Part shown: positions 1 to 50,235 of the stretch, piece after piece
Numbering within the stretch: the first letter of the stretch is position 1
How the letters are laid out: each line of letters opens with the position of its first letter
Assembly (NCBI GenBank): GCA_964369505.1
Contig: CAYJGS010000001.1
Coordinates: 1,605 to 58,384, forward strand
DNA: 56,780 bases
Origin: an uncultured Desulfovibrionaceae bacterium
GTDB taxonomy: Bacteria > Desulfobacterota > Desulfovibrionia > Desulfovibrionales > Desulfovibrionaceae
Direction: 5' to 3'
Translations under genes and position numbers: made by a program
Notes under the pieces: generated by a model
Seen by the model: the letters and a program-made list of their open reading frames with translations, nothing else
What the model was told of the DNA's origin: nothing
The model's database searches: none

Positions 1-161
1 TAACTCGCTACCGCTCGAGTCTCCCGACGGGTTAAGGTGCTCAGGGCGGCGGATAAGATGCAACTGGAAGCCAGTTCCAGTTGCCCGCCTACTTCGCTCA
101 ATAACTCGCTACCGCTCGAGTCTCCCGACGGGTTAAGGTGCTCAGGGCGGCGGATAGCATG
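1..161. repeat. Tandem direct repeat of two ~60-nt units (1-60 and 102-161, 101-bp period). The array may continue left of the window.
   Basis: Positions 1-55 are identical to 102-156, and 58-60 match 159-161. Only 56-57 versus 157-158 differ. Each unit runs into a different hairpin (about 48-89 and 149-182) closed by GGCGG/CCGCC-type pairs. The repeat is G+C-rich and abuts the AT-rich island. Confidence 0.8.
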
Positions 162-253
162 CACGTAAATTCCACATGCCGCTTTGCAGGCGATAAAAAT
201 GAACTTTAGCTTATTTCACACGGCGTAAGGCAAGCCTTAAAGGAATATAATGA

Positions 254-2923
254 CTATAAAAGTTGCCTTTTAGCAAGTTTAGCAAAGTGACCATTGGCTT
301 GAATTAATTCTTTATACGTACCTTGTTCGATGATTTTCCCTTCATTTAAAACAACTATACAGTCGGCATCAATAATTGTTGAAAGGCGATGCGCAATGAC
401 TATTTTTGTAACTGGAAGCTCGGCAATTGTTTCCCTGACAATATTTTGTGCATTATTATCCAGTGCGCTGGTTGCTTCGTCAAAGAAAAGTATTTTAGGG
501 CTTTTAACCAATGCCCTAGCAATTAAAATTCTTTGTTTTTGCCCGCCGGAAAGACCACCGTCAGCACCACTTACCACAGTATGCATTTTCATGGGCATTG
601 CTTCTATATCTTTATCGCATCCTGCGTGTTTTGCCGCTTGCCATGCATCATCAATGGTGAGTGAAGAAGAGCCTGCAACAATATTTTTAAAAATACTATC
701 CGGAATAAGTTTACTATCTTGAAGCACAACACCCAGTTGTGAACGAAGCTGGCGCAAATTCACATGATTTAAATCAAGATTATCATAAGAAATAGAGCCT
801 TGCAGTGGCTTTTCAAAACCTAACAAAAGGCGCAATAAAGTGGATTTTCCCGAACCGGATTCCCCCACAATAGCCACAAATTCGCCGGCATTGATTTTTA
901 AGCTCACATTATCAATTATAGCTCGTTGTAGTGTATTATATTTAAATGTTACATGTTTAATATCTATGTTGCCTTGAATGTTTTCAATTTGCCCTTGCCA
1001 TAAGTTTTTTTCAGGCATTGCTTCAAGTAAGGGGCTTAACCTTTGATATATAGGTATGGCTTCAATGGTATTAATTAACGATATCAAAATCGAACTGAAT
1101 GACGCACTCACTATGCCTAGTGCAGATGAAAAAGCCACAAAATCTGAAAGAGAAATCATTGCATCAGGCGAATAATTAAAAAGAAAAGTAATTAAAATAA
1201 TAATTATTATAATAATACAAATAGGAAGAATAGCGCTTAAAAGTGATACAGTTTTTTCGCAGTTTGATAATTTAAAATATATTCGCTTTTGCTCGGAGAA
1301 TTTTTCACTCCAATGCTCAAGAATTTGATTTTCAGTTCCTGTTGCTCTTATTTTACTTAGTCCGGCAAAATATTGGATACTATTTCCTTGCATTTCACCC
1401 GAAAGAGATGCCATTTCTTTTTGTAATCTATAACTTGTAAAAGCAATAATTATAAAAATAAATGATATAATAAACATAAATAAAAGTGTGACAATACTAA
1501 ATAGAGGTGAATAGTAAAACATCAATAATAAAGGAGGAAATATAAATATTGAAGTCAAAGCTGTTTTTAAAAAAGTATTATTTAAAATATTGGATAGTTG
1601 TATGATACTAAGACTTCTATCTGTTATGTCGCCAATGGAATAGTCTTTAAAAAATGTAAGCGGAACACTTAAAAGCCTATCCCAAACACTAGCTTGCAGC
1701 GACCAACACAAGCGATGGCGGATGCGTAGTAAAAGCAAAGAACTTAAATATTCTATGGTTGCCTTTGTTAAAGCAAAGCCAATTGCTAAAATAAAAATTT
1801 GCATGAGCAATTCATAATCTGCAAGGGGTATGACTGTAGAAAAAATGGTGGCATTTATTATGGGAAGGGCCGAGCTTAGTAATGCTATGATAAAAAACAA
1901 AAAGCTTGCTCTTATAAAATCTGTTCGAGACATTTCCCACGCCAAAGAAAATAGTTTTTTTAATGTAATAGGTTCATTTGGAAAGGGCTTATAAAAAATA
2001 GTGCCTTTATTACTTAAGTTTTCAAGAAAAGAATCATCAATTTGGTTAGTTTTTGCAGTGGCACTGTCATACCAATACCACACACTCTCATCATCAAGAG
2101 GAAATATAGCCACTCTTTCGCCTGTTATTAGTTCACCCAAAAAAGGCATACCACACTTATTCTGCCAATCAGATTCCAATGTGATGTTTCTTTTGCGTAT
2201 GGCAGATTGTTTGCAAATCATGTCAAGGTGGGCGTTTTCATCTGCTTCTGAAGTAATATTAGGTATAATAAATTGTATATTTTGAATTTTTCCAAGAGCA
2301 GTAATTGCACCGGCTAAGGAGTTTTTGTTTGCTGTAAAATTATATTTGTTGTTAACATTAAAAAAGTTAAAAACATTAGAAATGGCCTTTTTATGCGACT
2401 GAGTGGATTCACTTTGAAGCAACTTATATTGTTCACTAAAGGCTGCTTTTTGTTCAAAAACAAAATTATTGAAATAGCCATATAGTTCATTGCTGTTTTC
2501 CACAAAAAATTTTGGTATATAATCAGATGAAAATTCAAAGTCTGGCACAGAAATTTTTAACAAATGAGACATAAATATATGCAACTGTTCGTTTATTAAG
2601 AATTTGTCCGAATCTGCTAAATTTTCAAGCTCTTGATACGGCAATTCCACATATATAGTATTTAAATTTGCAATGGCGCATAATTTTATTGTGCTATTCT
2701 TATTTGGCGCTATGCCGCGAAATGCAGTGCAATCATAATTTGAAAGTGAACCATAATATATTCTATGCATAGCTTGATGTTTACTGTCAAATTCTATTAA
2801 AAATAAATTAAAATCTCCTTCTTTTAAAAGATAAATCACATCTGGATTATCTAAGATGACAAGCTTACCGCTGTTTGAATATTCTAAAAGATTCTTAGGC
2901 AAAGTTTTCAGTGATTGTATCAT
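254..2923 (-). CDS. ABC exporter (fused permease and ATPase) without a peptidase domain. It has an N-terminal cNMP-binding-like domain and resembles the NHLM-type second transporter.
   Basis: The ORF is 889 aa. It has Walker A GESGSGKST, signature LSGGQKQR and Walker B ILFFDEATSALD, with a multi-TM exporter core. The ~300-aa N-terminal region has no C39 Cys motif. Its start overlaps the upstream stop (TAATG at 2921-2925). Confidence 0.85.
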   Translation of the reverse strand: MIQSLKTLPKNLLEYSNSGKLVILDNPDVIYLLKEGDFNLFLIEFDSKHQAMHRIYYGSLSNYDCTAFRGIAPNKNSTIKLCAIANLNTIYVELPYQELENLADSDKFLINEQLHIFMSHLLKISVPDFEFSSDYIPKFFVENSNELYGYFNNFVFEQKAAFSEQYKLLQSESTQSHKKAISNVFNFFNVNNKYNFTANKNSLAGAITALGKIQNIQFIIPNITSEADENAHLDMICKQSAIRKRNITLESDWQNKCGMPFLGELITGERVAIFPLDDESVWYWYDSATAKTNQIDDSFLENLSNKGTIFYKPFPNEPITLKKLFSLAWEMSRTDFIRASFLFFIIALLSSALPIINATIFSTVIPLADYELLMQIFILAIGFALTKATIEYLSSLLLLRIRHRLCWSLQASVWDRLLSVPLTFFKDYSIGDITDRSLSIIQLSNILNNTFLKTALTSIFIFPPLLLMFYYSPLFSIVTLLFMFIISFIFIIIAFTSYRLQKEMASLSGEMQGNSIQYFAGLSKIRATGTENQILEHWSEKFSEQKRIYFKLSNCEKTVSLLSAILPICIIIIIIILITFLFNYSPDAMISLSDFVAFSSALGIVSASFSSILISLINTIEAIPIYQRLSPLLEAMPEKNLWQGQIENIQGNIDIKHVTFKYNTLQRAIIDNVSLKINAGEFVAIVGESGSGKSTLLRLLLGFEKPLQGSISYDNLDLNHVNLRQLRSQLGVVLQDSKLIPDSIFKNIVAGSSSLTIDDAWQAAKHAGCDKDIEAMPMKMHTVVSGADGGLSGGQKQRILIARALVKSPKILFFDEATSALDNNAQNIVRETIAELPVTKIVIAHRLSTIIDADCIVVLNEGKIIEQGTYKELIQANGHFAKLAKRQLL

Positions 2924-5115
2924 TACATGCTCTCAATTAATTTGCTATAGTACCCATTAAGAGTGAGTAATTCTTGATGACTTCCCTGTTCAACAATGCT
3001 ACCTTGCTCTAAAACTATAATTTTATCCGCATCTCGTATAGTGCTTAATCTATGTGCAATAATAATAGTTGTGCAACCGCGTCGGCGGATGTTTCTGTCC
3101 ACATGCAATTCCGTGATGGGATCCAATGCACCTGTGGCTTCATCTAAAATCAAAACGCTTGGATTTACAGAAAGCGCGCGTGCAATTTCAAGTCTTTGCC
3201 TTTGGCCACCGCTAAAGTTTTTACCGTATTCGTCTACTTCTGAAAAAAAGCCTGAAGGACGTTGACTTATTTCGTCATATATTTCGGCATCTATTGCCGC
3301 TTGCTGCACTGTTTGTATAGAAATAGCACGATTTCTCATGCTTAAATTTTCATATACTGTGCCTTTAAACATAAAAATTTCTTGATCCACAACTGCAAAA
3401 GAATTTGCAAATAAAGTAGCGCTTAACTCATTGCGCGTTTTTCCATCAAAGGTGATTTCACCAGACCAAGGAGTATATAAGCCAGTAAGCAATTTAGCAA
3501 TTGTGGTCTTGCCTGAGCCGGAAGAACCAACCAAAGCGATGCGGTCTCCTGCAGATATTTTCAATGATAAATTTTTAATTATGGGTTCTTTTATGGGATT
3601 ATAGCCAAATGTAATATTGCATAGTTCAATATACCCCTGAAGCTTTCCCATTTTTTCATCGGCTAAATCACGAGCATCATTGTTAAAAATAGGGTCTGTA
3701 GTATACGTCAGTACATCGTCAATACGTCCCATAGTAACATCTAACCTTTGCACAGATGAAAGCATGGCCACAAGGGCAACAATTGGGGCAAAAAAGTACC
3801 CTATAAGTATCTGAAACGATAATAATTCACCCATAGACAAAGAACCTAAAAGAACACGCAAAGCCCCAAAAACCAAAATACCGATGGTATTTAATGAAAT
3901 AAGTGTTGTGGGTATAGTTCCTATGAAAAGGGAGGATAATTCAAGTTTCTGAGCAGACATAATGGCATTTGTTTGAACACCGCTAATAGTGGAAAAAAAG
4001 TCGTCTTCAGCACCGGTTGATCTTAGCGTTTCCATAAGCATGATACCTGATGCACTATCACCCACTAGGCGCCCGAAATCCAATTGGACAGATTGACTTA
4101 GAATACGCTGATTTTTAATTTCCCAAGTTAAAGCCCATATGGTGCATATGGCAGTAAAGCAAGCAAACAAACCGAGAAGCGTATCATAATAAACAAGCAA
4201 AGCACCATAAAATATAAACGTTATGAATGACAATATATTTATGGCCAAATCTCGTGAAATAAAGTTTGCGACCTCATCAACAGTTGTTAATCTATTAGCT
4301 AATTCACCTGGCTGGCGTAAATTAAAAAAATTAATAGGCAGGCGGATAATATGTTCAAAAAATTTAAAAGATGATTCTAGGGAAAGTTTAAGATTGAATC
4401 GTATTATAATATTCTGTTGCATATTATGTAACATGAAAATCATAAAAGCAACCATGATGGCAGCAAAAAGAAGCGGTGTTCCCCACGCATAATTTTCGCC
4501 AGTAATAAGCTTATCAACTAAAATTGCTGAAAAGCTTGGCACTAAAATACTTGCAGGAATAAGCAAAAGCCCTGCTAAAACTGTGAAAAAAATCACATCT
4601 TTATATTGCGAAAAGCGTTTTTTTAAAAGATCAACAAAGGAGCGAGGCTTGCCCGAAGGAACAAAGTTTTCATTGGGATAAATTTCCAAAAGTACACCAC
4701 TAAAGGATTGATCCATCTCTTCAGTTGTAACAATTCTTTCGCCAAATGCCGGATCATTAAGGTAATGCTTATCGCCTTTTCTGCCCGTATATAGCAAAAA
4801 ATGATTGAAATTCCAAAATAGGACAATAGGAAGCTTGTATTCACATAAATTATTGATGTCATGCTCTTTATAGCCTGTAGCCACCATGTCATACGACCTT
4901 GCTACCTTTAGCAAAGAAGAAGCCGTGCTTCCATCTCGAGAACAACCGCATGCATCACGCATAAGTTCTAAGGGGATAAATTTCTTATAGAAAGCAAAAA
5001 TCATTGCCAAAGAAGCAGCTCCACACTCAATGATTTCCATTTGTAAAATCAAAGGAACCTTAATTCGGTGTGGTGTAAAGACGTGCTTAATGAGTTTTAA
5101 TATATTTTTAAACAT
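2923..5115 (-). CDS. Peptidase-containing ABC transporter (PCAT): C39 double-glycine peptidase, permease and ATPase
   Basis: The ORF is 730 aa. The N-terminal C39 motif is QMEIIECGAASLAMI (catalytic Cys). It has Walker A GSSGSGKTT, signature FSGGQRQR and Walker B LILDEATGALD. Confidence 0.9.
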   Translation of the reverse strand: MFKNILKLIKHVFTPHRIKVPLILQMEIIECGAASLAMIFAFYKKFIPLELMRDACGCSRDGSTASSLLKVARSYDMVATGYKEHDINNLCEYKLPIVLFWNFNHFLLYTGRKGDKHYLNDPAFGERIVTTEEMDQSFSGVLLEIYPNENFVPSGKPRSFVDLLKKRFSQYKDVIFFTVLAGLLLIPASILVPSFSAILVDKLITGENYAWGTPLLFAAIMVAFMIFMLHNMQQNIIIRFNLKLSLESSFKFFEHIIRLPINFFNLRQPGELANRLTTVDEVANFISRDLAINILSFITFIFYGALLVYYDTLLGLFACFTAICTIWALTWEIKNQRILSQSVQLDFGRLVGDSASGIMLMETLRSTGAEDDFFSTISGVQTNAIMSAQKLELSSLFIGTIPTTLISLNTIGILVFGALRVLLGSLSMGELLSFQILIGYFFAPIVALVAMLSSVQRLDVTMGRIDDVLTYTTDPIFNNDARDLADEKMGKLQGYIELCNITFGYNPIKEPIIKNLSLKISAGDRIALVGSSGSGKTTIAKLLTGLYTPWSGEITFDGKTRNELSATLFANSFAVVDQEIFMFKGTVYENLSMRNRAISIQTVQQAAIDAEIYDEISQRPSGFFSEVDEYGKNFSGGQRQRLEIARALSVNPSVLILDEATGALDPITELHVDRNIRRRGCTTIIIAHRLSTIRDADKIIVLEQGSIVEQGSHQELLTLNGYYSKLIESM

Positions 5116-5123
5116 GGCATGAG

Positions 5124-6449
5124 CTAATGTAGTATTTGTTTGACCTTTTGTTCAATCACATCCTCATGAACACCTGTTCCCAAAAGCGCTTTACGTATTT
5201 TAGAAAAAATAATTTCAATAGGCCGCAACGTTGCAACAGCAATACTTGCACTACAATATGTGCCTTCTGGAATTTTAATATTTGGACCAGCGCCACTTGT
5301 CCATTCAAAACCGCTAAAAGTGTCAGCATTACTGGTAAGCATAATTTTTACTTCCACAGGCATATTATTGCTCATCTTAAAAATAGCATCAGAAAAATTT
5401 TTATTACGATATTTCAAATTTAAAGCTTCGGCAGATTGTACATAATTATTCACAGAATGTACAACGCCCCGTATTGAACCTTCCCTTTCAGCTTTTACCA
5501 TGGAAGGGGTAATCAAAACGGGCATACCTGTTTTAATTTTACCACTATTAAGCAGTGGATAATAGGCATAAAGCACCCAATTATCCGCGTGGCTTTCAGA
5601 GGTGTCATTAATATTTACAACTGCTTGATTGGTATTTACTATCATTCCATGCTCAACAAGTACTGAAGTCACAAGACCTGTACCGGTACTGATAATTTGA
5701 GTATTTGCTCTATAAAGATTATTTTTTTCAACCAATTCTTCACTAAGTGCAATCAATTCTAGATATAGCTGGAGTTCTTCGTGGTTGATTTCTTTTTTTT
5801 CCTTCAAATATTCGTTTTCTGTTTTTTTTAATTCGGTTATTTTATCAACCAAGTTCATGGTAACTCTATCTCTTTCGGCACGGAAATCTGCATATTCCTT
5901 ATCAGAAGTAGCCCCCCTGGCTCGCACTCCGCTCAATTTTTCTAAAAATGCATCATGCCATTCTATTTGCTTTTTAAGCAACTCAATGGTTGTATTTATA
6001 CTTTCTTGCATTTGTGTTTTTTGACTTTCATTACTTTGATCAAGGGACGCGTTGAATGCAATGATTTGGTCACTCATTTTCTTTTTGCGCTCAATCTTAT
6101 CAATCAAACTTTTAATTTCGGAACGATCTTTAGGAATCAAAATTGTAGCTATTAAGTCACCATATTGAACATAATCACCAACAGAAACATTCACTGAGTC
6201 GACAACACCGTTTGCCGGAGAATACGCACTATAAATACCCTGTTTTGTAAGAATAATGCCACTTGCTGTTATGCGTTCGTTTATCTTGCCAAATAAACTC
6301 CAGTAAATTATCAAAACTACCAATAAACCTAAACTAAGAAGGGCTAACCAGCTTTTTCTTGATACGATAACAAACGAACGATCTAACTCCATAGGAGAAA
6401 ACATTTTTTTCAAGGCGTTATTTCTAAAAAGATTTTTTTTCATAATCAT
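5124..6449 (-). CDS. HlyD/CvaA-family membrane fusion (secretion adaptor) protein
   Basis: The ORF is 441 aa. It has an N-terminal TM anchor (WLALLSLGLLVVLIIYW) and a lipoyl-like segment (GVVDSVNVSVGDYVQYGDLIA). A long charged coiled-coil middle and a C-terminal beta-rich part follow. It lies immediately upstream of the two ABC genes. Confidence 0.85.
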   Translation of the reverse strand: MIMKKNLFRNNALKKMFSPMELDRSFVIVSRKSWLALLSLGLLVVLIIYWSLFGKINERITASGIILTKQGIYSAYSPANGVVDSVNVSVGDYVQYGDLIATILIPKDRSEIKSLIDKIERKKKMSDQIIAFNASLDQSNESQKTQMQESINTTIELLKKQIEWHDAFLEKLSGVRARGATSDKEYADFRAERDRVTMNLVDKITELKKTENEYLKEKKEINHEELQLYLELIALSEELVEKNNLYRANTQIISTGTGLVTSVLVEHGMIVNTNQAVVNINDTSESHADNWVLYAYYPLLNSGKIKTGMPVLITPSMVKAEREGSIRGVVHSVNNYVQSAEALNLKYRNKNFSDAIFKMSNNMPVEVKIMLTSNADTFSGFEWTSGAGPNIKIPEGTYCSASIAVATLRPIEIIFSKIRKALLGTGVHEDVIEQKVKQILH

Positions 6450-6551
6450 ACTGCTTTACGCATCAAGGGCGTGTTTATCATTTTGCGGGAAATGTGCTCT
6501 AGTATGGTTTCATGTGAATACAAATATTACTACTTACATTATATTTTGGCT

Positions 6552-7799
6552 TTATTTAACAATACCAATATCAACTTTTTTTAAAAAATCGTATAGCTCA
6601 CTTGCTCGAACAACACTAATAGGATAATCTTTAATATAACCATCTTCACCAAATGCTATATCACCCATTGGTGTTGATAGTGTTTGCGTGTTCATATAAT
6701 CAAGAACTATATTTATATCATTAGAGCCTGCCTGCTCTATGGCATTATATAAAATGAATACCATACGGTACACCATGGGAATTATATAAAATGTTGTTTT
6801 TATTTTTCCTTCATTGTAAAGCTCTTTCATTATCGAAATTAAATTATCATCAAGTCTATAGTTTAAAATTATATAGCTTTTGTTAATATTTGGTAGAAGT
6901 TGTAATTCTTCCCAAGTGATAGAATCTTGGTTGATAATAAAATCATTATATTTAGGCTTTTGTAAAAAATTTTTATTATTAGTATAAAAATCTAAAAACA
7001 TAGCTCTATTACCAATAGAAATAATATTTAGATCCGGTGCAAATTTTAAAGATTCATTGATATATCTTTGCACGTGACCACTTAGGTTTTTCTTTTCGTA
7101 ATTTAAAGTTCCTAACATATTTAAGTTGTTTGAATGAAAATTACGCAAAATAACACTGGAATATTTTTTACTGTATAAGTCGTCTTCATGCATTATGATA
7201 AAAGGCGTTTCTGTATCATATTTTTGAGCATTCCATTGCGCTGCAGCTTTTGCCTCGGTAAAAACTGAAGCAGTGCTTGAAAAATAACTCTTAGCACGGG
7301 GAACTGCTAAATCTATATCCCCTTGTGTCATGGTGATTTGCAATAAATTGGCAGCAGCAACTTTATTTTTTATAACGGAAACAATGGAAGAACTAAAAGG
7401 ACCAATTATTCCAAAAATATCTTCTTGAGCCATAATTTCACTCAATAAATCGTCACTTTTTTTTGCTGATCCTTCATTATCATACCACAATATTTCGATT
7501 TTTTTCCCGTGTTCTTTCTTTTGAGCGTTGATTTTATTGACAGCAAACTCTATGGTATCCTTTAATTTTATATTATGGTTGTCCCAATTTTCCCAAGCTC
7601 CAAGAGCGGCAAATTTTATAATTTCTCTTGGTTTTTTGTAATATTCTAATCTTTTATTGCCAAGTTCCTGCAGGCTTAGTTCTTGCGTTGATATGAAAGA
7701 TGAAAAAGTGCCCAAGCTTTTTAAGTCATTAGCATTAATCAAAAAAAATATAGGAATTATTGCAATAAATAATATTATTAGAACAGCCTTCTTTGGCAT
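6552..7799 (-). CDS. Membrane-anchored or secreted type-1 periplasmic-binding-fold protein (LivJ/ANF-receptor-like)
   Basis: The ORF is 415 aa. It has an N-terminal hydrophobic anchor or signal (AVLIILFIAIIPIFFLI). An alternating beta-alpha pattern and length are typical of Peripla_BP_6-type proteins. A GGAGA RBS lies 5 nt upstream of the ATG. The fold assignment is from pattern recognition only. Confidence 0.6.
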   Translation of the reverse strand: MPKKAVLIILFIAIIPIFFLINANDLKSLGTFSSFISTQELSLQELGNKRLEYYKKPREIIKFAALGAWENWDNHNIKLKDTIEFAVNKINAQKKEHGKKIEILWYDNEGSAKKSDDLLSEIMAQEDIFGIIGPFSSSIVSVIKNKVAAANLLQITMTQGDIDLAVPRAKSYFSSTASVFTEAKAAAQWNAQKYDTETPFIIMHEDDLYSKKYSSVILRNFHSNNLNMLGTLNYEKKNLSGHVQRYINESLKFAPDLNIISIGNRAMFLDFYTNNKNFLQKPKYNDFIINQDSITWEELQLLPNINKSYIILNYRLDDNLISIMKELYNEGKIKTTFYIIPMVYRMVFILYNAIEQAGSNDINIVLDYMNTQTLSTPMGDIAFGEDGYIKDYPISVVRASELYDFLKKVDIGIVK

Positions 7800-7936
7800 T
7801 GTTTTCTCCGTAGGCTTGGGGCTCGCAAATAAATTTTTTTCGGAATTTTATATAAATCATCTTAAAAAAAGGTAACAGTGCTCAGAGTCCATTTCGCCAT
7901 ATAGCATACATGCGTTATTACGCTTATTTCATTATA

Positions 7937-7976
7937 TAAAAAACTCCCAACGGTTTTGCTTTGCACCGTTAGGAGT
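7937..7976 (-). terminator. Rho-independent terminator or attenuator directly after the precursor-peptide gene
   Basis: On the minus strand, the stem actcctaacggt/accgttgggagt (one mismatch) is followed by TTTTTT. It lies 61 nt after the precursor stop and upstream of the next gene. Confidence 0.7.
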
Positions 7977-8036
7977 TAAAATGAACAACGGATATTACCC
8001 GCTAATAGCAATTACGTTGTAAGTAGTCGCACGTAT

Positions 8037-8234
8037 CTAAATATTATATGTTGCGTTTGGTTTGTAAGCGCCTCCCCTAGATCCTCCACCTGAAGAACTA
8101 TATTGGGCAGCACCACCAGTAATTGAATCTAATGACTCTTCGTCAAGCTCATTGGTTAACTTATTAATTTTTGAAGCTTGTTCTTGTTTTATTTTTTGGT
8201 CAAGTTCACATTTTTTTTTCGTTGCTTTTTCCAT
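8037..8234 (-). CDS. Double-glycine-leader precursor peptide (41-aa leader, 24-aa core AAQYSSSGGGSRGGAYKPNATYNI)
   Basis: The ORF is 65 aa with an AAGGA RBS about 10 nt upstream. The leader ends L(-12)DEESL(-7)DSI(-4)TGG, which matches the LSxxELxxIxGG double-glycine consensus. It is the first gene of an operon that ends with a C39-peptidase ABC exporter. Confidence 0.8.
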   Translation of the reverse strand: MEKATKKKCELDQKIKQEQASKINKLTNELDEESLDSITGGAAQYSSSGGGSRGGAYKPNATYNI

Positions 8235-8359
8235 AATGAGTTATCCTTTTGATTATTAGTGAGTAAATACTGAGAATGCTTTACAAAAAAAAGTTCTATT
8301 CGCAATATGGCTTCACGATTTTTGATAGTTAAGACTAACTTACAGGCTGAAAATTGTCA

Positions 8360-8391
8360 AGCTAAACGCAAATGACAGCTAAACGCAAATG
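8360..8391. promoter_or_regulatory. Tandem 15-bp direct repeat agctaaacgcaaatg x2 (17-bp period) in the divergent promoter region
   Basis: Exact copies lie at 8360-8374 and 8377-8391. This is 126-157 bp upstream of the precursor start codon (minus strand) and about 140 bp upstream of the wbpE-like start (plus strand). Confidence 0.45.
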
Positions 8392-15608: not shown

Positions 15609-17567
15609 TTACTCTTCAATGCGTAAAAGCTCTTTCCAGCGTAAATAATTTATGCAGCGCCAAATATACCAATGGAAGGGGCGTTTGCCATTGCATATAT
15701 CTTTCCATTCCTTAAGCAGATTTTTGTGGTGCAGTAATTGCGAATTCTTTGCTAAATCAAGGCTTTCTTCCACCCACGCGGGCATTTGTTCCAGCCATAA
15801 TTTTTCCGGCGTGGCAAAACCAATTTTATCTCTTCTGTCAAGCAAGGTGTCAGGCACAATGCCGCGCATGGCTTTGCGGAAAACAGATTTTGTCCAGCCT
15901 GCATTATCAATAAGATAATGCTCGGGCAGAGAAAGAAAAAATTCTGCCAATTCCTTGGTGCAAAAGGGCACACGGCTTTCCACAGAAAAGCTCATGGCAT
16001 TGCGGTCTCCATGGCGCAATAAATTGGGCAAGCCATCCCATGTGAGCTGTGTGGCTAAAGCTTTACGCACTTTGTCCCTTGAATTGTATATGGATAATTG
16101 CGAACGCAAAAGCTGTAAGGCTTTATGTTCACGCAAATTATCTTCGCGTAACCAAGAAGGCACAAGCGGCTTGTCAACTATTTTACGGGCAATCCTTTGT
16201 AAGCAATCCGGTGTGTGCAGTCCTATAAATCTTTGAAGCACAAAGGTATAATCTCTACCGGGCCATGTATTATTTGTGCGCAAAAGTTGCAAGGCTTGCA
16301 CGAATTGGCCTTTATGCACCAATGTTTGCAGCCTGTATTCCGGATAGCCAAAATAACCCGCCAACATTTCATCGGCACCTTGTCCATCAAGGGTAACCAC
16401 TATGTCGCGTTCTTTTACCAACTGGAAAACCCTATACTGGGCATAGATGGATGTAGAAATAAAAGGTTCGCCAAGGCGCAAGATGAGGCGGTCAATGTCG
16501 TTTTGTAATTCGCTTTGTGATACAAAAACCTTATGTGCTGTGGCTTGGGTATGGGCTATGACGGCATCGGCCCATTTTTCTTCTGAAATATCTTCACTAT
16601 CTTTAGCCACATAGGTAAATGTGTGCAAGGGCATATCCGGTTCTAAATGGCGCACAGCGCAAGCCACGGCAGAAGAGTCTATACCGCCCGAAAGAGCAAC
16701 GCCCAAGGGTACGTCAGAGCGCAAATGCAAGCGCACAGATTGCAAAAAAAGCCGTCTTGCTTCTTCGGCAGCTTCGTCAAAAGAAATTTTTTGCGGCGAG
16801 GGCAAGGGCACTTGCCAATAGCGCTCTTTGTGTAAAACTTCACCGGTTTCACTGTGGATGAGCATATAATGGGCAGGCTCTAGTTGAAATACATTTTCGA
16901 TAAGGCATTCAGCGCCCACACCAACGCGCGCAATAATAAAAAAATTATACGCTTGCAACCAATTGAGCTTGCGCTTAACGTGTGGAAAACACAATAAGGC
17001 CGGCAATTCTGAAGCAAAGGCAAAACCTACATTTTGCTGCCTTGTCCAATAGAAAGGCTTGATGCCAAAAAAATCTCTGGCGCAAAAAACGGTTTTTTCC
17101 ACATTATCATAAAAAGCAAAAGCAAACATGCCTGTTAGGCGATTTAAGCAAGCTTTGCCCCAATGTATAAGCGCTTGTAAAAGCACTTCGCTGTCTGTAG
17201 CTGTGTGGAAAGAGGCACCAAGCTTTTGTAATTCGACTTTAAGTTCAAGATAATTATATACTTCACCATTGTACACAAGGGTGTATCTGCCGCAAGCGCT
17301 GTGCATGGGCTGATGTCCGGCAGAGGATGTGTCTATGATGGAAAGGCGAGTCTGTCCGAGCAACAATTGCGCTTTTGCATCTTGCCCTGCAGAGGAAGAA
17401 ATAGGGCCTTTTTCTGTGCCAAGTAGCTGGCCTTGCGCAGAATAGGCCGCATAACCCCTATCGTCAGGGCCGCGCTCTTTCAAGGCTGTAAAAAGCGACT
17501 GAGCTATTGTATCAGCTTGCCTAAATTCCACAGGTTCTTTAGGAATATATCCAAATATACCACACAT
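15609..17567 (-). CDS. Glutamine-hydrolysing asparagine synthase family amidotransferase (AsnB/WbpS-like)
   Basis: The ORF is 652 aa. It has the N-terminal nucleophile MCGIFGY and the PP-loop LSGGIDSS. Its start overlaps the upstream stop (TAATG at 17565-17569). Confidence 0.85.
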   Translation of the reverse strand: MCGIFGYIPKEPVEFRQADTIAQSLFTALKERGPDDRGYAAYSAQGQLLGTEKGPISSSAGQDAKAQLLLGQTRLSIIDTSSAGHQPMHSACGRYTLVYNGEVYNYLELKVELQKLGASFHTATDSEVLLQALIHWGKACLNRLTGMFAFAFYDNVEKTVFCARDFFGIKPFYWTRQQNVGFAFASELPALLCFPHVKRKLNWLQAYNFFIIARVGVGAECLIENVFQLEPAHYMLIHSETGEVLHKERYWQVPLPSPQKISFDEAAEEARRLFLQSVRLHLRSDVPLGVALSGGIDSSAVACAVRHLEPDMPLHTFTYVAKDSEDISEEKWADAVIAHTQATAHKVFVSQSELQNDIDRLILRLGEPFISTSIYAQYRVFQLVKERDIVVTLDGQGADEMLAGYFGYPEYRLQTLVHKGQFVQALQLLRTNNTWPGRDYTFVLQRFIGLHTPDCLQRIARKIVDKPLVPSWLREDNLREHKALQLLRSQLSIYNSRDKVRKALATQLTWDGLPNLLRHGDRNAMSFSVESRVPFCTKELAEFFLSLPEHYLIDNAGWTKSVFRKAMRGIVPDTLLDRRDKIGFATPEKLWLEQMPAWVEESLDLAKNSQLLHHKNLLKEWKDICNGKRPFHWYIWRCINYLRWKELLRIEE

Positions 17568-44749: not shown

Positions 44750-46078
44750 ATGGGCGCAAGCACAATTAGATACATTCACGCAGCCGATTTACACCTTGAC
44801 GCGGCTTTCATAGGCATAAGCCGTGAAGCCTATACAGAAAATTTAGGGCAAGAGCTGCACAAAGCGACATTTGTGGCTTTGGAACGTCTTGTGGCTTTGT
44901 GTCTGCAAGAAAAGCCCCATTTTCTTGTATTGGCTGGTGATATATATAATGTGAAAGATCAAAGCCTTAAAGCTCAACTTGCTCTGCGCGATGCTTGTCT
45001 TACCTTGGCAAAACACAACATTAATGTGTATATTGTCCATGGCAATCATGATCCCTTATCCTCGCGCTTACAAATGCTGCACTGGCCAGAAAATGTGTAT
45101 ACTTTTGGCCAAGATATAGAAAGCCATGTGGTAAAATTTCAAGAAAAGCCCATTGCTGTTGTGCACGGCATAAGCCATACCAATGAATATGAAGGCCGTA
45201 ATTTAGCCAAAGATTTTGCACGGCGCAATGAACCGGAATATAAGAATATTTTCCAGCTTGGCCTTTTGCATTGCACCCTTGATACAGCCCAACATGTCGA
45301 CCGCTATGCCCCCTGTACCCTTGATGATTTGCAAAAAACCGGATTAGACGCTTGGGCACTTGGGCATGTACATGAAAAAAAGATTATCCAAAAGAATCCC
45401 TTGGTGGCCTATGCCGGCAATACTCAAGGCTTGCATATCAACGAAGAAGGTCCCAGAGGTTGCTATCTTGTAACAGCAAAAGCCAAACAAGACGGCGGTT
45501 TTCATACGGAAGCACAATTCCACGCCCTGGGGCCTGTGGTTTGGGAAAAATGCCTTGTTGACCTTGAAGAAGTGCAGCAGTTTGATACAGCTGCACAGCT
45601 TATTTTAGACCATATAGACTTGTGCAAAGCGCAATTACCCATTTCTTGCTCCGGACTTATTGTGCGTATTATTTTAACGGGGCGCACAAACCTTGATGGA
45701 CCTTTGCGTAATATTCAAGAACGCGCCGATCTTTTGCAGCACTTGCGAGCCCAATTGGCCGAAGGCTCCGCGCGCTCTGTTTCAAGCATTACTCAAGACC
45801 CACAAGTCAGCATTAAAGATATTCAAGTGGAAACCAGCCCCTTGCTCGATTTTGAAACCTTACGTAAACAAGATGATTTATTGGGTGAAACTTTGCGTTA
45901 TTCACAAAAACTTTTGGAAAATGAGCAAGACGCGGCCGCTTTTGTGCAAAATATTTTAGCGCCTTTGTATGCGCATCCCAAAGCAAGGCACATTTTGGTA
46001 AATCCTCATAGCGAAGAAATACAAAACCTTCTGCAAGAAGCAGAGCGCCTTTGCGCAGACAGCATGGAGAATCGCTAA
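44750..46078 (+). CDS. SbcD/YhaO-like metallophosphoesterase (DNA repair exonuclease family)
   Basis: The ORF is 442 aa with a GAGGAGGG RBS. The motifs are AADLHLD, AGDIYN, HGNHD and GHVH. Its stop overlaps the start of the next gene (TAATG). Confidence 0.8.
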   Translation: MGASTIRYIHAADLHLDAAFIGISREAYTENLGQELHKATFVALERLVALCLQEKPHFLVLAGDIYNVKDQSLKAQLALRDACLTLAKHNINVYIVHGNHDPLSSRLQMLHWPENVYTFGQDIESHVVKFQEKPIAVVHGISHTNEYEGRNLAKDFARRNEPEYKNIFQLGLLHCTLDTAQHVDRYAPCTLDDLQKTGLDAWALGHVHEKKIIQKNPLVAYAGNTQGLHINEEGPRGCYLVTAKAKQDGGFHTEAQFHALGPVVWEKCLVDLEEVQQFDTAAQLILDHIDLCKAQLPISCSGLIVRIILTGRTNLDGPLRNIQERADLLQHLRAQLAEGSARSVSSITQDPQVSIKDIQVETSPLLDFETLRKQDDLLGETLRYSQKLLENEQDAAAFVQNILAPLYAHPKARHILVNPHSEEIQNLLQEAERLCADSMENR

Positions 46079-49000
46079 TGCATATCCAATCTTTTCATAT
46101 TGACGCTTTTGGCAAATTGTCTGATGTGGGTATTGAAGACTTGCCGCGCGGTTTGGTGGTCTTTCTTGGCAATAATGAGGCCGGCAAATCCACGTGCCTT
46201 GAATTTTTTCGCACCATGCTCACAGGCTATACCGCTTATGTCAAAGATATATATGAGCCCATGCACACCACTGATAATAAGGCCGGTGGCTCCATTGATT
46301 TGCATTCTTCAAGCTATGATTTGGTGCGCCTAACCCGCAGGCCCGGCAAGGGGCAAGGGCTCATGTGGCTTGCCGACCGCCAAGGCGAAGCCTTGGACAC
46401 AAGTTTGCTTGATAAAATATTGGCCGGCGTTACGCGCGATGTATACCGCAATGTGTTTGGCTTTAGCCTTAATGAGCTGCAAGTTCTTGAATCTTTAAGC
46501 AGCGAAGAAGTGCGCCATGCTCTGTACGGCGCAAGCTTTGGCATGCATTTGCGTTCCCCAAGTACTGTACTTAAAGAACTCACCACACAAATGGAAAAGC
46601 GCTTTAAAAGCAGAGGCACCACGCCGCTTTTAAATATTACGCTTAAAGAATGGGAAGAAGTACAAAAGCATTTGCGCCATGTGCAAAACGAATGTGCACA
46701 ATTTGACAGTTTGAGTTTGCAAAAAAAAGAATTGGAAGAAAAAATCTTTGGAATTCGCCAGCAAAAGAGCGATTTTGAACAGCAAAGGCGACAAGCCGAA
46801 CGTCAATTGGGCGTTTGGAAACAATGGGATGAATGGCGAGCCACTGAACAACGCTTGGCACGTCTTGAGCCTGTGGCTGCATCCTTTCCTTCAGAGGGGC
46901 CTTCGCGCCTAGAAAAAGCACAACACATGGCCATGGAGGCCGCAAGGCGCATACAAACACAAGAAGAACGCTGCAAAAAAATTGAAGAAAGCATAAAACA
47001 TGTGCCCATAAACGAAGCTTTGCTCGAGAAAAGACCAAGCCTACAGAGCTTGAGCGAGCGCAAAACTTCTTTCAGGCAAGCTCAAAGCTCTTTAGGGCCT
47101 GTTTCGGCACAAATTGTACGGCATGACACATTATTACAAGAACGTTTGGCCGACCTTGGGCCGGAATGGACTTGCGCGCGTATTCGCAGCATGAACCGCT
47201 CGCTCTTTATCCGCAGTGAACTTGAAAAATGCGCTTCGCATATCCAAGCCACCGAAGGTGCCCACAGTGCCGCCGCCAGTGCTTTGGAAAAAGCCAATAT
47301 TACTACAGAAGAAGCCAAACACGCTGTGGAAATTGCCCGCACAAGCTATGCATCCATACCTGTGCCCATGGCTCTGTTAAATTTAGAAGAGCGTGAAGAT
47401 ATACGCCGCAGTTTGGCGCTCATAGAAAATGCGCAACAAACGCTGCAAGAAAAAGAACACGCTCTGCGCCAAGCAAAGCAAACCCTACGCCGCACTTTAA
47501 ATCCCTTGCATATACGCCATCAAGATATGGAATTTGAACAGGAACAAAAAAACGGGCTTTTGCAAAAATTAGAAGGTCTTATGCAAAGCCGTGAGCAAGG
47601 TTTGCGTTTGGCTAAAGAAGCTCAAGAAGCCCGCAAAGAAACGCAAAACAGTGAAAGGGTTGTGCAACTTGCCCAAGAAGAAGAAGATACTTTGCGCTCT
47701 CGCCTTGACCGCACCCGCAAAAGCAAGGACGAAACTGCCGATGCTTCACGCAAAAGTGTGGACATGCGCACCAGTGCCGTGCGCACTTTGCGCCATTTGT
47801 GCAGCAGCCTTACCCTTGAAGAAGAACGCTTAAAAGAAATGAGCATGCGCCATGCCGAAGCTGTGGCGCCTGAACCTGTAAAAAGCATTTTGCTTATGCT
47901 CATTGGGCTTATTGTTGTGGTTGCCGGACTTGCGGGCTTGCTCATGCCCCTCTATTTTGGCATACACGAAATCCAAATAACCAAGCGATTGGTATTGCCG
48001 CTTACTCAATTTACCAGTTATTTTGTTGTGGTGGCCGGTGCCGCTTTTCTTGCAGGCGGCATGCCACGTTCAGGCCCTGAAAACGAACGCTTTAAAAGAG
48101 AACAAAAAAGTCTTGAAGAGCGCATGGCTACGCAAAAAAACCGTATTTTGGAATTAGAAGGTCGTATCCAAGAGCAATGCGTATTGGCAGAAGTGCCGGA
48201 TGCTGATCCCATTTCCCTTGATGCTGTAGAGCTTGTGCTTGAAGAAGAAAGGCAAAAGTGCAGCACCGACGAAAGACTCAGTGTTGAATTGTTGGAATTG
48301 GAAAAAGAATACACAGATATAACTTCAAAAACTCAAATAAAAAGACATATATTTGGGCAATTACAAAATGCCGAACAGCAAACACTGCATAAATGGCATA
48401 ACCTTTTGCGCGCGCACGGCATAGATACAGTGCCTTCACCCGACGCGGCAGAAGCTTTTTTTGCTAGGGTAGAAGCCGCCATTGTGGCTCAAGAAGCCTT
48501 GCAAAGCTTACAGCTTGAAACAGAACAATTGGAACGCCAAATTAAAGAGCGCATTCGTAAATTAGCAAGCTATGCCCCCATTGCCGCCGGCCTTCATAAA
48601 TATCAAGAAGAGCATCCGGAAATTCTACAATTCGAAGAAAGCTCTACTCAAGAAGCAGAAGCATCTTTAACAGCAACACCTGCTCTAGAGGCAGAACATC
48701 TTATGGAGCTTGAACAAGTTGTAACAGACGAAACGGCGCCACAAGAATGGACAGTACTGCAAGTTATTACGGTTACGCAACGCGTGCTTGACGCATGTCG
48801 TTTGGCCGACGAAGCTGAAGCTGAGCGCGTAAAAGCTCAAACAGCTCTTGATAATGCCGGTTATAGCGAAGATATGGCTTTGCGAGCTCAAGCCGAGGCC
48901 ATGGCCACGCTGCAGCAGTGCGAAAAAACCCTTGCCGAAGCGCGAGAATCTTGGAAAAGCAATTTGCAAGAACTTGGCATAGGTATGGATGTGGAGCCAA

Positions 49001-50235
49001 GCATGCTCAGAGCTGCTCTTGAATGCATGGAAAACTGCTTAAATATTGAAAGTGAAATCCTTAAATTAAAAGAAGAATACGAGCGCTTGGAAAAAGAATG
49101 CCAAGCCCTGATACTTCCGCTGCAAGGTATTTTAGAAGAATTGCAATGGGAACTTCCCACTGAAAGCACAGATGCAGAAGAACATACCGAGCTTGTCGGC
49201 ATTCCCTATCAAGAAGACTGGATAGGCACCCTTGATACCATTTTGCACCATGCCCAAGCGGCAAGAGAAAATAAACAAGCTTATGAACAATACGCAAGTC
49301 AGCTTATCACGTATGAAGAAGAATTGCACGAAGCCCAAAGGCAATTGCAAGATGCCAATGTTATGCAAGCAGAACTTTTGCGCTTAGCCGAAGCTTCAGA
49401 TAGTGAAAACTTTTTACATCTTGCCGCCATACTTAAGCAAAAAGAAGAATTTTTGCAGCGCAAAGCCGACCTTGAAGACGCCTTACGCCTTGCTGCCGGT
49501 CAACAAGAATTTGAAGAATTTCTCACATCTTTCACAGAAACCGATGAACAAGAACGCGAGACATATATTCAAGAAATGGAAAAAAACCTGCAAGCATGCA
49601 GCCTTGAAGAAGAAGAAAGCGTTACCACTTTGGCCGATGTCAATGCCACCTTGCGTACTTTAAGCACCAGCGATCAATTGGCAAAACTTCGCCAAAAAGA
49701 AAAAAACTTACAAGAAAGCTTGCACAATGGCGCCAAAGATTGGGCAAGATATGCTTTGGCAAGACAGCTTATTTTACAAGCCAAACATAATTTTGAATTG
49801 GAAAGACAACCCCAAGTCATACGTATGGCTTCGGAAATATTCCAAAAAATCACGGCGGGACGCTGGAAAAGCATTAGTGCTTCTCTGGAAGAATCAAGCC
49901 TTTATGTGTTACCGCCACACGGTGAACCCGTTTCGCCCGTTATTTTAAGCCGCGGCACCCAAGAACAACTCTATCTTTCTTTGCGCCTTGCCTATATCCG
50001 TAACCATGCAGAACATGCGGCGGCCTTGCCCATTATTATGGACGATGTGCTTGTAAACTTTGACCCCCAAAGGGCAGAGCGCACGGCTCATGCCTTACTA
50101 CACTTGTGTGAAGAACCCCATGCCCATCAGGTGCTCTTTTTCACTTGTCATCCGCATATTGCCGATATGCTGCAAGAAAAAAGCGCGCAAAGTCAGCGTT
50201 ATATTGTGGAAGATGGAAACATTCTGAAGGCTTAA
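46078..50235 (+). CDS. YhaN/SbcC-like AAA/SMC-type ATPase with long coiled coils and a central two-helix membrane hairpin
   Basis: The protein is 1385 aa from the ATG at 46078, with a GGAGA RBS. Walker A is GNNEAGKST. The signature-like motif is SRGTQEQLYLSLRLA and Walker B is LPIIMDDVLVNFD. The hydrophobic segments are ILLMLIGLIVVVAGLAGLLMPLYF and FTSYFVVVAGAAFLAGG. Confidence 0.8.
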   Translation: MHIQSFHIDAFGKLSDVGIEDLPRGLVVFLGNNEAGKSTCLEFFRTMLTGYTAYVKDIYEPMHTTDNKAGGSIDLHSSSYDLVRLTRRPGKGQGLMWLADRQGEALDTSLLDKILAGVTRDVYRNVFGFSLNELQVLESLSSEEVRHALYGASFGMHLRSPSTVLKELTTQMEKRFKSRGTTPLLNITLKEWEEVQKHLRHVQNECAQFDSLSLQKKELEEKIFGIRQQKSDFEQQRRQAERQLGVWKQWDEWRATEQRLARLEPVAASFPSEGPSRLEKAQHMAMEAARRIQTQEERCKKIEESIKHVPINEALLEKRPSLQSLSERKTSFRQAQSSLGPVSAQIVRHDTLLQERLADLGPEWTCARIRSMNRSLFIRSELEKCASHIQATEGAHSAAASALEKANITTEEAKHAVEIARTSYASIPVPMALLNLEEREDIRRSLALIENAQQTLQEKEHALRQAKQTLRRTLNPLHIRHQDMEFEQEQKNGLLQKLEGLMQSREQGLRLAKEAQEARKETQNSERVVQLAQEEEDTLRSRLDRTRKSKDETADASRKSVDMRTSAVRTLRHLCSSLTLEEERLKEMSMRHAEAVAPEPVKSILLMLIGLIVVVAGLAGLLMPLYFGIHEIQITKRLVLPLTQFTSYFVVVAGAAFLAGGMPRSGPENERFKREQKSLEERMATQKNRILELEGRIQEQCVLAEVPDADPISLDAVELVLEEERQKCSTDERLSVELLELEKEYTDITSKTQIKRHIFGQLQNAEQQTLHKWHNLLRAHGIDTVPSPDAAEAFFARVEAAIVAQEALQSLQLETEQLERQIKERIRKLASYAPIAAGLHKYQEEHPEILQFEESSTQEAEASLTATPALEAEHLMELEQVVTDETAPQEWTVLQVITVTQRVLDACRLADEAEAERVKAQTALDNAGYSEDMALRAQAEAMATLQQCEKTLAEARESWKSNLQELGIGMDVEPSMLRAALECMENCLNIESEILKLKEEYERLEKECQALILPLQGILEELQWELPTESTDAEEHTELVGIPYQEDWIGTLDTILHHAQAARENKQAYEQYASQLITYEEELHEAQRQLQDANVMQAELLRLAEASDSENFLHLAAILKQKEEFLQRKADLEDALRLAAGQQEFEEFLTSFTETDEQERETYIQEMEKNLQACSLEEEESVTTLADVNATLRTLSTSDQLAKLRQKEKNLQESLHNGAKDWARYALARQLILQAKHNFELERQPQVIRMASEIFQKITAGRWKSISASLEESSLYVLPPHGEPVSPVILSRGTQEQLYLSLRLAYIRNHAEHAAALPIIMDDVLVNFDPQRAERTAHALLHLCEEPHAHQVLFFTCHPHIADMLQEKSAQSQRYIVEDGNILKA

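Follow-up and report, generated by a model that had tools for sequence, protein, structure and literature searches.

A LivJ-like binding-protein gene accompanies NHLM-type export genes at a Desulfovibrionaceae locus encoding a short double-glycine peptide

We analyzed a 56,780-nucleotide (nt) stretch of DNA from an uncultured Desulfovibrionaceae bacterium (the window), at the low-coordinate end of which lie five minus-strand genes encoding a 65-amino-acid (aa) double-glycine precursor peptide, a protein with a periplasmic binding-protein fold, and three export proteins of the NHLM (NHLP/Nif11) type. Our main new result concerns the binding-protein gene which, as judged from its neighborhoods in related genomes, is a conserved fourth component of a rare subtype of the NHLM cassette, not a local curiosity. 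For the locus as a whole, the reading that we favor, and consider fairly probable, is that of a self-contained, four-component secretion module that has its own cargo gene and would export a variable, probably unmodified peptide. The window locus was compared with related loci in other genomes, designated L001 to L016. The original prediction had described five co-directional genes, and all five open reading frames (ORFs) were recovered, as listed below; ABC1 and ABC2 denote the C39-peptidase and the peptidase-less ATP-binding cassette (ABC) exporter, respectively, and the adaptor is the HlyD-type protein.

8037-8234, minus strand: precursor peptide gene, 65 aa (ORF).
6552-7799, minus strand: binding-protein-like gene, 415 aa (ORF and Pfam PF13458).
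5124-6449, minus strand: HlyD-type membrane-fusion adaptor, 441 aa (TIGR03794 and Pfam).
2923-5115, minus strand: ABC1, C39-peptidase ABC exporter, 730 aa (TIGR03796 and Pfam).
254-2923, minus strand: ABC2, peptidase-less ABC exporter, 889 aa, with an N-terminal extension of ~200 aa (TIGR03797 and Pfam).

The 415-aa protein had been predicted to be membrane-anchored and to adopt a binding-protein fold, and both features were borne out. It matched Peripla_BP_6 (PF13458) over nearly its full length (59.8 bits; gathering threshold, 31.7; E = 4.9e-16), as well as the receptor family PF01094, and it contains a single hydrophobic segment, located at the N terminus (residues 5-23; mean Kyte-Doolittle value, 2.94). 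Likewise, a profile built from 13 sequences matched LivJ-type structures in the Protein Data Bank (4GNR, E = 1.1e-19; 1Z15, E = 2.4e-16) and, more weakly, the ligand-binding domains of class C G-protein-coupled receptors (GPCRs). Structure prediction from a 5-sequence alignment gave a mean predicted local distance difference test score (pLDDT) of 43, too low for the model to be used. Some distant relatives carry lipobox-like Cys motifs in place of the hydrophobic anchor; an N-terminal anchor that takes this form in certain relatives indicates that the protein is probably tethered to the outer face of the inner membrane, facing the periplasm. Thus, the protein resembles the importer binding proteins LivJ and LivK (PF13458; 4GNR and 1Z15) by homology over most of the domain and differs from them in its apparently uncleaved N-terminal anchor, in a conserved N-terminal extension of ~55 residues, and in the company that its gene keeps, i.e., exporter rather than importer genes.

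The binding-protein subfamily is very small: an exhaustive hidden Markov model search of 1.84 billion representative proteins returned 6 sequences at E ≤ 1e-30, rising to 14 when the threshold was relaxed to E ≤ 1e-10. Genomic context was readable for 11 loci (the window, L001, L002, L003, L004, L007, L009, L012/L013, L014, L015, and L016; the cassette is visible only in part in L003 and L004), and in 11/11 the binding-protein gene is found next to or within a cassette of the NHLM type, even where identity falls to 23-27%, with the exporters of the distant loci confirmed as NHLM-type. Its position varies (i.e., before the adaptor gene, between those of the adaptor and ABC1, as in L015, or after that of ABC2), and it is always co-directional with the pump genes; a linkage that outlasts such rearrangement speaks for a functional connection. 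No permease or ATPase genes of LivHMGF-type importers were found nearby, the linked genes being NHLM-type exporters in every readable context. The gene is present as first described and is no oddity of this one locus. We found no curated NCBIfam model for this protein, and neither a scan of Joint Genome Institute (JGI) metagenomes with the binding-protein profile nor a tblastn search against plasmids produced a match; in our literature search, no paper connected NHLP, PCAT, or double-glycine export with a binding protein. At L009 (193-1446), the gene appears to be frameshifted, the first disruption falling on a run of N, consistent with either a pseudogene or an assembly artefact.

Consistently, ABC2 residues 1 to ~200 and the binding protein diverged faster than any other part of the cassette. 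Identity between the window and L001 was 46% for the binding protein and 43% for ABC2 residues 1-200, compared with 57% for ABC2 overall, 67% for the adaptor, and 70% for ABC1; the corresponding values for the window and L012 were 27% (binding protein), 24% (ABC2 residues 1-200), 37% (adaptor), and 51% (ABC1). These rates bear on the idea that the binding protein has no contact with the cargo. It might instead detect a small solute, e.g., an amino acid, and in that way gate or regulate the exporter, or it might be a periplasmic structural element of the pump. In favor of this idea, Leu/Ile/Val-binding proteins are its closest relatives of solved structure, it is conserved across loci irrespective of cargo type, and its gene stays co-directional with the pump genes wherever it is placed. 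In contrast, such rapid divergence of the binding protein together with the ABC2 N terminus would be unusual for a core structural pump part, and in our literature search no earlier case emerged of a type I binding protein acting with an exporter-type ABC protein and a HlyD adaptor. We regard a solute-sensing or structural role as unlikely, and consider it likely that the binding protein handles the cargo or protects the producer.

Turning to the pump, we found that all three proteins named in the original prediction as the NHLM export architecture exceeded the curated NCBI equivalog cut-offs, with 255.7 bits for the adaptor against TIGR03794 (cut-off, 156.2), 888.6 bits for ABC1 against TIGR03796 (cut-off, 853.3), and 731.2 bits for ABC2 against TIGR03797 (cut-off, 709.4). 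These models represent the adaptor, peptidase-ABC, and ABC proteins, respectively, of NHLM bacteriocin export (Haft et al. 2010, PMC2887384). Like that system, the window triad is adjacent and co-directional and bears a C39 domain on one ABC protein only; unlike it, the window cassette embeds an additional LivJ-like binding-protein gene outside the described triad. Peptidase_C39 (PF03412) was detected by Pfam in ABC1 alone (92.7 bits), and the ABC1 residues Gln25, Cys31, His105, and Asp121 are invariant across five loci, with a spacing that we take to agree with that of characterized C39 domains, e.g., ComA. The nucleotide-binding domains of ABC1 and ABC2 are both strong ABC_tran matches.

ABC2 contains ABC_membrane and ABC_tran and no other Pfam domain, and its alignment to TIGR03797 begins at residue 202. 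Its N-terminal ~300 aa had been said to lack the peptidase motif; in agreement, neither Pfam nor an hhalign comparison with the C39 region of ABC1 revealed a C39 match there. More broadly, Pfam gave no family match for ABC2 residues 1-335 with the threshold relaxed to E ≤ 10; the cNMP_binding family (PF00027), which had been raised for the exporters, was thus not detected in this region either. An hhalign comparison of the ABC2 N terminus with Escherichia coli CRP was also negative. As these hhalign profiles held only five sequences each and are shallow, the ABC2 N terminus may nevertheless have a degenerate C39-like or cNMP-like fold. Single-sequence structure prediction of this region gave a pLDDT of 34, again too low for use, and a scan of the JGI metagenomes with its profile gave no match. 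Looking up the exact sequences of ABC2 and of the window peptide gave no match either. The ABC1 stop and ABC2 start codons overlap by 1 nt (TAATG), as they do in L002, L007, and L009, suggesting that the two proteins are probably translationally coupled and form a heterodimer carrying one peptidase domain. The ABC2 of the distant L015 cassette (4755-6980) is only 741 aa long and lacks the ~200-aa N-terminal extension, yet the binding-protein gene is present in that locus; thus, the extension and the binding protein are not strictly co-inherited. A weak Rfam match to CRISPR-DR22 inside the ABC2 coding sequence (955-987, minus strand; 23 bits versus a gathering threshold of 50; E = 0.35) is almost certainly due to chance.

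The cargo gene is preceded and followed by recognizable expression signals, which we list here together with the parts of the ORF.

8355-8360, minus strand: TTGACA, a −35-like box conserved upstream of the peptide gene, with a putative promoter function.
~8332-8337, minus strand: TAGTCT, a weak −10 candidate, separated from the TTGACA box by a 17-nt spacer.
8242-8247, minus strand: ribosome-binding site AAAGGA, ~8 nt 5′ of the ATG, of which AGGA is kept in L010.
8112-8234, minus strand: leader-coding part (residues 1-41), ending in ...LDEESLDSITGG.
8037-8111, minus strand: core-coding part of the ORF (24 aa, AAQYSSSGGGSRGGAYKPNATYNI) and stop codon.
7936-7977, minus strand: intrinsic terminator or attenuator with a 13-bp stem, a 10-nt loop, and U6 (free energy of the region, −33.2 kcal/mol; z = −3.6).

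Lying ~120 nt upstream of the peptide gene, the TTGACA box is kept in the window, L002, L004, and L010, where it is the sole well-conserved block within an otherwise divergent upstream region; a consensus promoter scan did not list it. The hairpin with its U-run, whose presence 3′ of the peptide gene had been anticipated, is conserved in L004 and L010, and a different hairpin with a T-run takes its place in L002. Our computed monoisotopic mass of the core AAQYSSSGGGSRGGAYKPNATYNI, 2376.11 Da, agrees with the earlier hand sum of ~2376 Da; the core is Cys-free and hydrophilic (grand average of hydropathy [GRAVY], −0.78).

Conservation of the 65-aa ORF, on which the original prediction depended, was evident in that it is kept in frame across related loci and is intact in six loci. 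A profile search yielded eight related peptides, all from metagenome-assembled genomes (MAGs) of uncultured Desulfovibrionaceae and from a single study (ERP123703). These eight short-leader peptides, encoded at six loci, have a common leader motif and very different cores; the leader end LDExSLDSxTG[GA] is conserved among the close members and takes a looser form in L009/L011, and the cores span 17-48 aa, with GRAVY values of −0.3 to −1.0, and are Cys-free in all but one case. The pair formed by the window and L010 locates the variation most sharply. Leader nucleotide identity was 118/123 (96%) and that of the intergenic stretch to the next gene was 231/239 nt (97%), whereas the core reached only 43/60 (72%) and was thus a local divergence hot spot. 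Nonsynonymous (pN) and synonymous (pS) differences per site were 0.03 and 0.09 in the leader versus 0.29 and 0.26 in the core, the core ratio of ~1.15 resting on very small counts and being no proof of positive selection. Since pS is raised in the core alongside pN, diversifying selection and exchange of core cassettes both fit, and the counts are too small to choose between them. These comparisons identify the 65-aa ORF as a genuine double-glycine precursor that is conserved, with hypervariable cores and conserved leaders.

As had been claimed, the peptide is unlike NHLP and Nif11 precursors: it had no NCBIfam match at E ≤ 0.01, and its sole Pfam match was a sub-threshold one to Bacteriocin_IIc. 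Could the ORF then be the decaying remnant of an NHLP precursor, with the cassette serving some other, unlinked cargo? The L012/L013 cassettes do lack an adjacent precursor, and the window leader is much shorter than those of the L001 precursors. Such decay is, on the other hand, hard to reconcile with an ORF that is intact in six loci and has kept its ribosome-binding site, −35 box, and terminator, with a leader 96% identical to that of L010 at low pN, and with a fully preserved double-glycine recognition motif; we consider it highly improbable. The second of the two tandem precursor genes in L002 (937-1131) encodes Gly-Ala rather than Gly-Gly at the predicted cleavage site; L009 likewise has two precursor genes, and the window has one.

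In streptococci, peptidase-ABC transporters are known to export double-glycine pheromones (ComC and BlpC), and this precedent raises the question of whether the window peptide is a strain-specific pheromone whose extracytoplasmic receptor is the Venus-flytrap-type binding protein. Small, hydrophilic peptides with conserved leaders and pherotype-like core variation fit such a scheme, as do a binding protein related to PF01094 and class C GPCR ligand-binding domains and its faster divergence relative to the pump components. In ComAB/ComC and BlpAB/BlpC, a histidine kinase and a response regulator are linked and a single ABC protein is used. By comparison, the window locus is similar in its short double-glycine precursor, variable core, and C39-ABC exporter with accessory protein, and dissimilar in its two ABC genes and lack of a linked kinase or response regulator. 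None of the loci has a linked transducer such as a histidine kinase or response regulator (the nearest kinases within the window lie >26 kb away), the binding protein has only its N-terminal anchor and no cytoplasmic output domain, and it is retained in L001 with very different cargo, i.e., Cys-rich NHLP-type precursors. A signaling system of this kind is, in our estimation, quite unlikely.

The relative L001 belongs to a Thermodesulfobacteriota MAG. Upstream of its cassette lie three precursors of 110-120 aa, each with a three-Cys core, that match the NHLP leader model TIGR03793 with E values of 3e-12 to 7e-8, all below the 50.9-bit cut-off, and that are followed by a radical S-adenosylmethionine (SAM)/SPASM maturase of the type acting on peptides that are made by ribosomes and modified after translation (RiPPs) and by a GNAT-like gene. 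L016 contains an NHLP-like precursor fragment. Together, these genes tie the cassette lineage elsewhere to NHLP-type, radical-SAM-modified cargo. The window differs from such radical SAM/SPASM-modified clusters in having neither the radical SAM gene nor core Cys, both of which L001 has, and from NHLM systems generally in its 41-aa leader without an NHLP (TIGR03793) or Nif11 (TIGR03798) domain, its Cys-free core, and its lack of a linked maturase. The window locus, which had been called an orphan, is not one evolutionarily, given a relative whose binding protein is 46% identical and which has NHLP-like precursors and a maturase. The Desulfovibrionaceae clade to which the window belongs has short-leader, Cys-free cargo and no maturase instead, and we infer the direction of this change.

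These results have to be weighed against a split RiPP cluster, in which a maturase encoded elsewhere in the genome modifies the peptide and the window locus is only the precursor and export part. The cassette lineage shared with L001 favors this explanation, as does the report of NHLP/Nif11 precursors from species in which no maturase was identified, clustering not being required (Haft et al. 2010, PMC2887384); moreover, just 253 nt are visible past the ABC2 stop codon, and the region beyond ABC2 was judged via L002 and L009 only. Within the 56.8-kb window, we found no tailoring enzyme (radical SAM, LanM, YcaO, cyclodehydratase, or other) and no outer-membrane factor, and the cassette genes have no small membrane ORF among or next to them, so the absences originally noted, including that of a small hydrophobic immunity gene, held up. 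The genes 3′ of ABC2 are a LysE gene in L002 and an integrase remnant and a prolyl-tRNA synthetase (ProRS) gene in L009, and neither a maturase nor an outer-membrane factor was found there. The cores of the window, L010, L002, and L009 peptides are Cys-free, compared with three Cys per L001 core, and the N-terminal NHLP domain of the L001 precursors is missing from the window leader. Two apparent candidates for tailoring enzymes were rejected. An AsnB-like gene (15609-17567), considered as a lasso-type cyclase, is surrounded by the glycosyltransferase genes of a polysaccharide cluster. In L010, the radical SAM and ATP-grasp genes found upstream of the peptide resemble maturases of cofactors or metalloenzymes and RimK ligases, respectively, and are missing beside the near-identical module in the window. 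We consider a split cluster unlikely. Given a hydrophilic core without Cys and the lack of any linked tailoring enzyme, the window peptide is most likely released unmodified; this we infer rather than assert, because a maturase may be unlinked.

In the four-component secretion module that we favor, the promoter would drive high-level transcription of the 65-aa precursor, and the hairpin terminator would let only part of the transcripts reach the four machinery genes. The C39 domain of ABC1 would then recognize the 41-aa double-glycine leader and cut after Gly40-Gly41, and ABC1/ABC2 would export the 24-aa core together with the HlyD-type adaptor and an outer-membrane channel whose gene lies elsewhere; the core, probably unmodified, would act between cells. 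In the weakest step, the periplasm-facing LivJ-like protein would bind the exported peptide for self-protection or hand-off. Gene content, family memberships, conservation of the ORF and the cassette, and core variability are established. Hypervariable cores between otherwise near-identical loci suggest a role between cells, as either narrow-spectrum antagonism or a strain-specific signal.

Several points weigh against this reading. Expression, cleavage, and export of the peptide are predictions from the genes. That the genes for NHLP/Nif11 precursors and their maturases can lie apart (Haft et al. 2010, PMC2887384) and that so little sequence is visible past ABC2 both bear on the unmodified state. 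A 24-aa hydrophilic, Gly/Ser-rich peptide is unlike a typical membrane-active bacteriocin, and the L012/L013 cassettes have no adjacent precursor at all. Finally, retention of the binding protein across loci with wholly different cargo disfavors a highly cargo-specific immunity. Only tentatively do we entertain the stronger proposal that the locus represents a new four-component class of peptide secretion, in which a tethered LivJ/Venus-flytrap-type protein would capture the just-exported peptide as a new form of producer immunity, or serve as an autocrine receptor or hand-off factor, and in which the cargo of one Desulfovibrionaceae clade would have changed from radical-SAM-modified NHLP precursors to peptides that are short, unmodified, and hypervariable.

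The locus had been said to match no described microcin or RiPP family; consistently, our literature search found no family or paper with such an arrangement, and no paper on double-glycine bacteriocins in Desulfovibrio. In its mode of operation, the locus resembles an exporter of double-glycine bacteriocins or of class II microcins, e.g., MccV with CvaAB-TolC, whose signals are 15-19 aa long and whose mature products are 5-10 kDa (Parker et al. 2025, PMC12219008). Both have a double-glycine leader, presumed to be cut by a peptidase-ABC protein acting with a membrane-fusion protein, both need no modification, and the outer-membrane channel of the window system, too, would be encoded elsewhere. 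In contrast, the window leader is 41 aa and its product 2.4 kDa; and where class II microcins have one ABC protein and a small membrane immunity protein, the window locus has two ABC genes, no such immunity gene, and the 415-aa binding-protein-fold gene. The window locus extends double-glycine peptide secretion to the Desulfovibrionaceae. Its interest lies mainly in the conserved binding-protein component and the apparent cargo switch. Although bioinformatics has recognized the NHLM triad since 2010, its mechanism has hardly been studied, and a conserved component with a ligand-binding fold offers a concrete handle on cargo handling or producer protection in two-ABC exporters. Likewise, close relatives that differ in cargo (i.e., NHLP-like precursors with a radical SAM maturase versus short, Cys-free peptides without one) constitute a natural experiment in the repurposing of RiPP export for unmodified peptides.

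With respect to mobility, the GC content of the module is 34.2%, compared with 41.7% for the rest of the window, and the near-identical segment from the peptide gene to the start of the binding-protein gene has a different upstream context in L010 than in the window. The DNA upstream of the L004 peptide gene (300-800) contains IS110-like transposase fragments, and the integrase remnant downstream of ABC2 in L009 (8895-9520) also fits mobility of the module. The low GC content, nearby transposase fragments, and differing L010 context together indicate a mobile, self-contained unit, and the module is probably horizontally mobile.

Just past the ABC2 stop codon, the window contains a 62-nt direct repeat (1-62 and 102-163; 97% identical) with a GC content of ~53%, compared with 34% for the module, and a perfect hairpin, CAACTGGAA-CTGGC-TTCCAGTTG, lies between the two copies. 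This region matched nothing in Rfam and showed no significant fold (z = −0.7), and no copy was found in related loci or plasmids; the repeat may run on past the window edge. Converging on the cassette in L007 (7157-8629, minus strand) is a gene for a 490-aa Gly/Asp-rich repeat protein with a weak match to NF046115 (calcium-binding-repeat-like), which could be a substrate of type I secretion. The L010 region upstream of the peptide (98-6425) contains a gene for a TraB/PrgY-family protein (617 aa) and one for a 296-aa protein with a common C-terminal motif, along with the radical SAM/SPASM gene, whose product resembles tungsten-cofactor or metalloenzyme maturases, and, on the opposite strand, genes for a methyltransferase and two RimK-type ligases; together these look like a separate, uncharacterized system. 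In the window itself, the genes on the far side of the peptide gene form a surface-polysaccharide cluster, and farther away (44750-50235) a calcineurin-like phosphoesterase gene (442 aa) is followed by an overlapping gene for a 1394-aa AAA_23/AAA_27 protein, an SbcCD-like pair.

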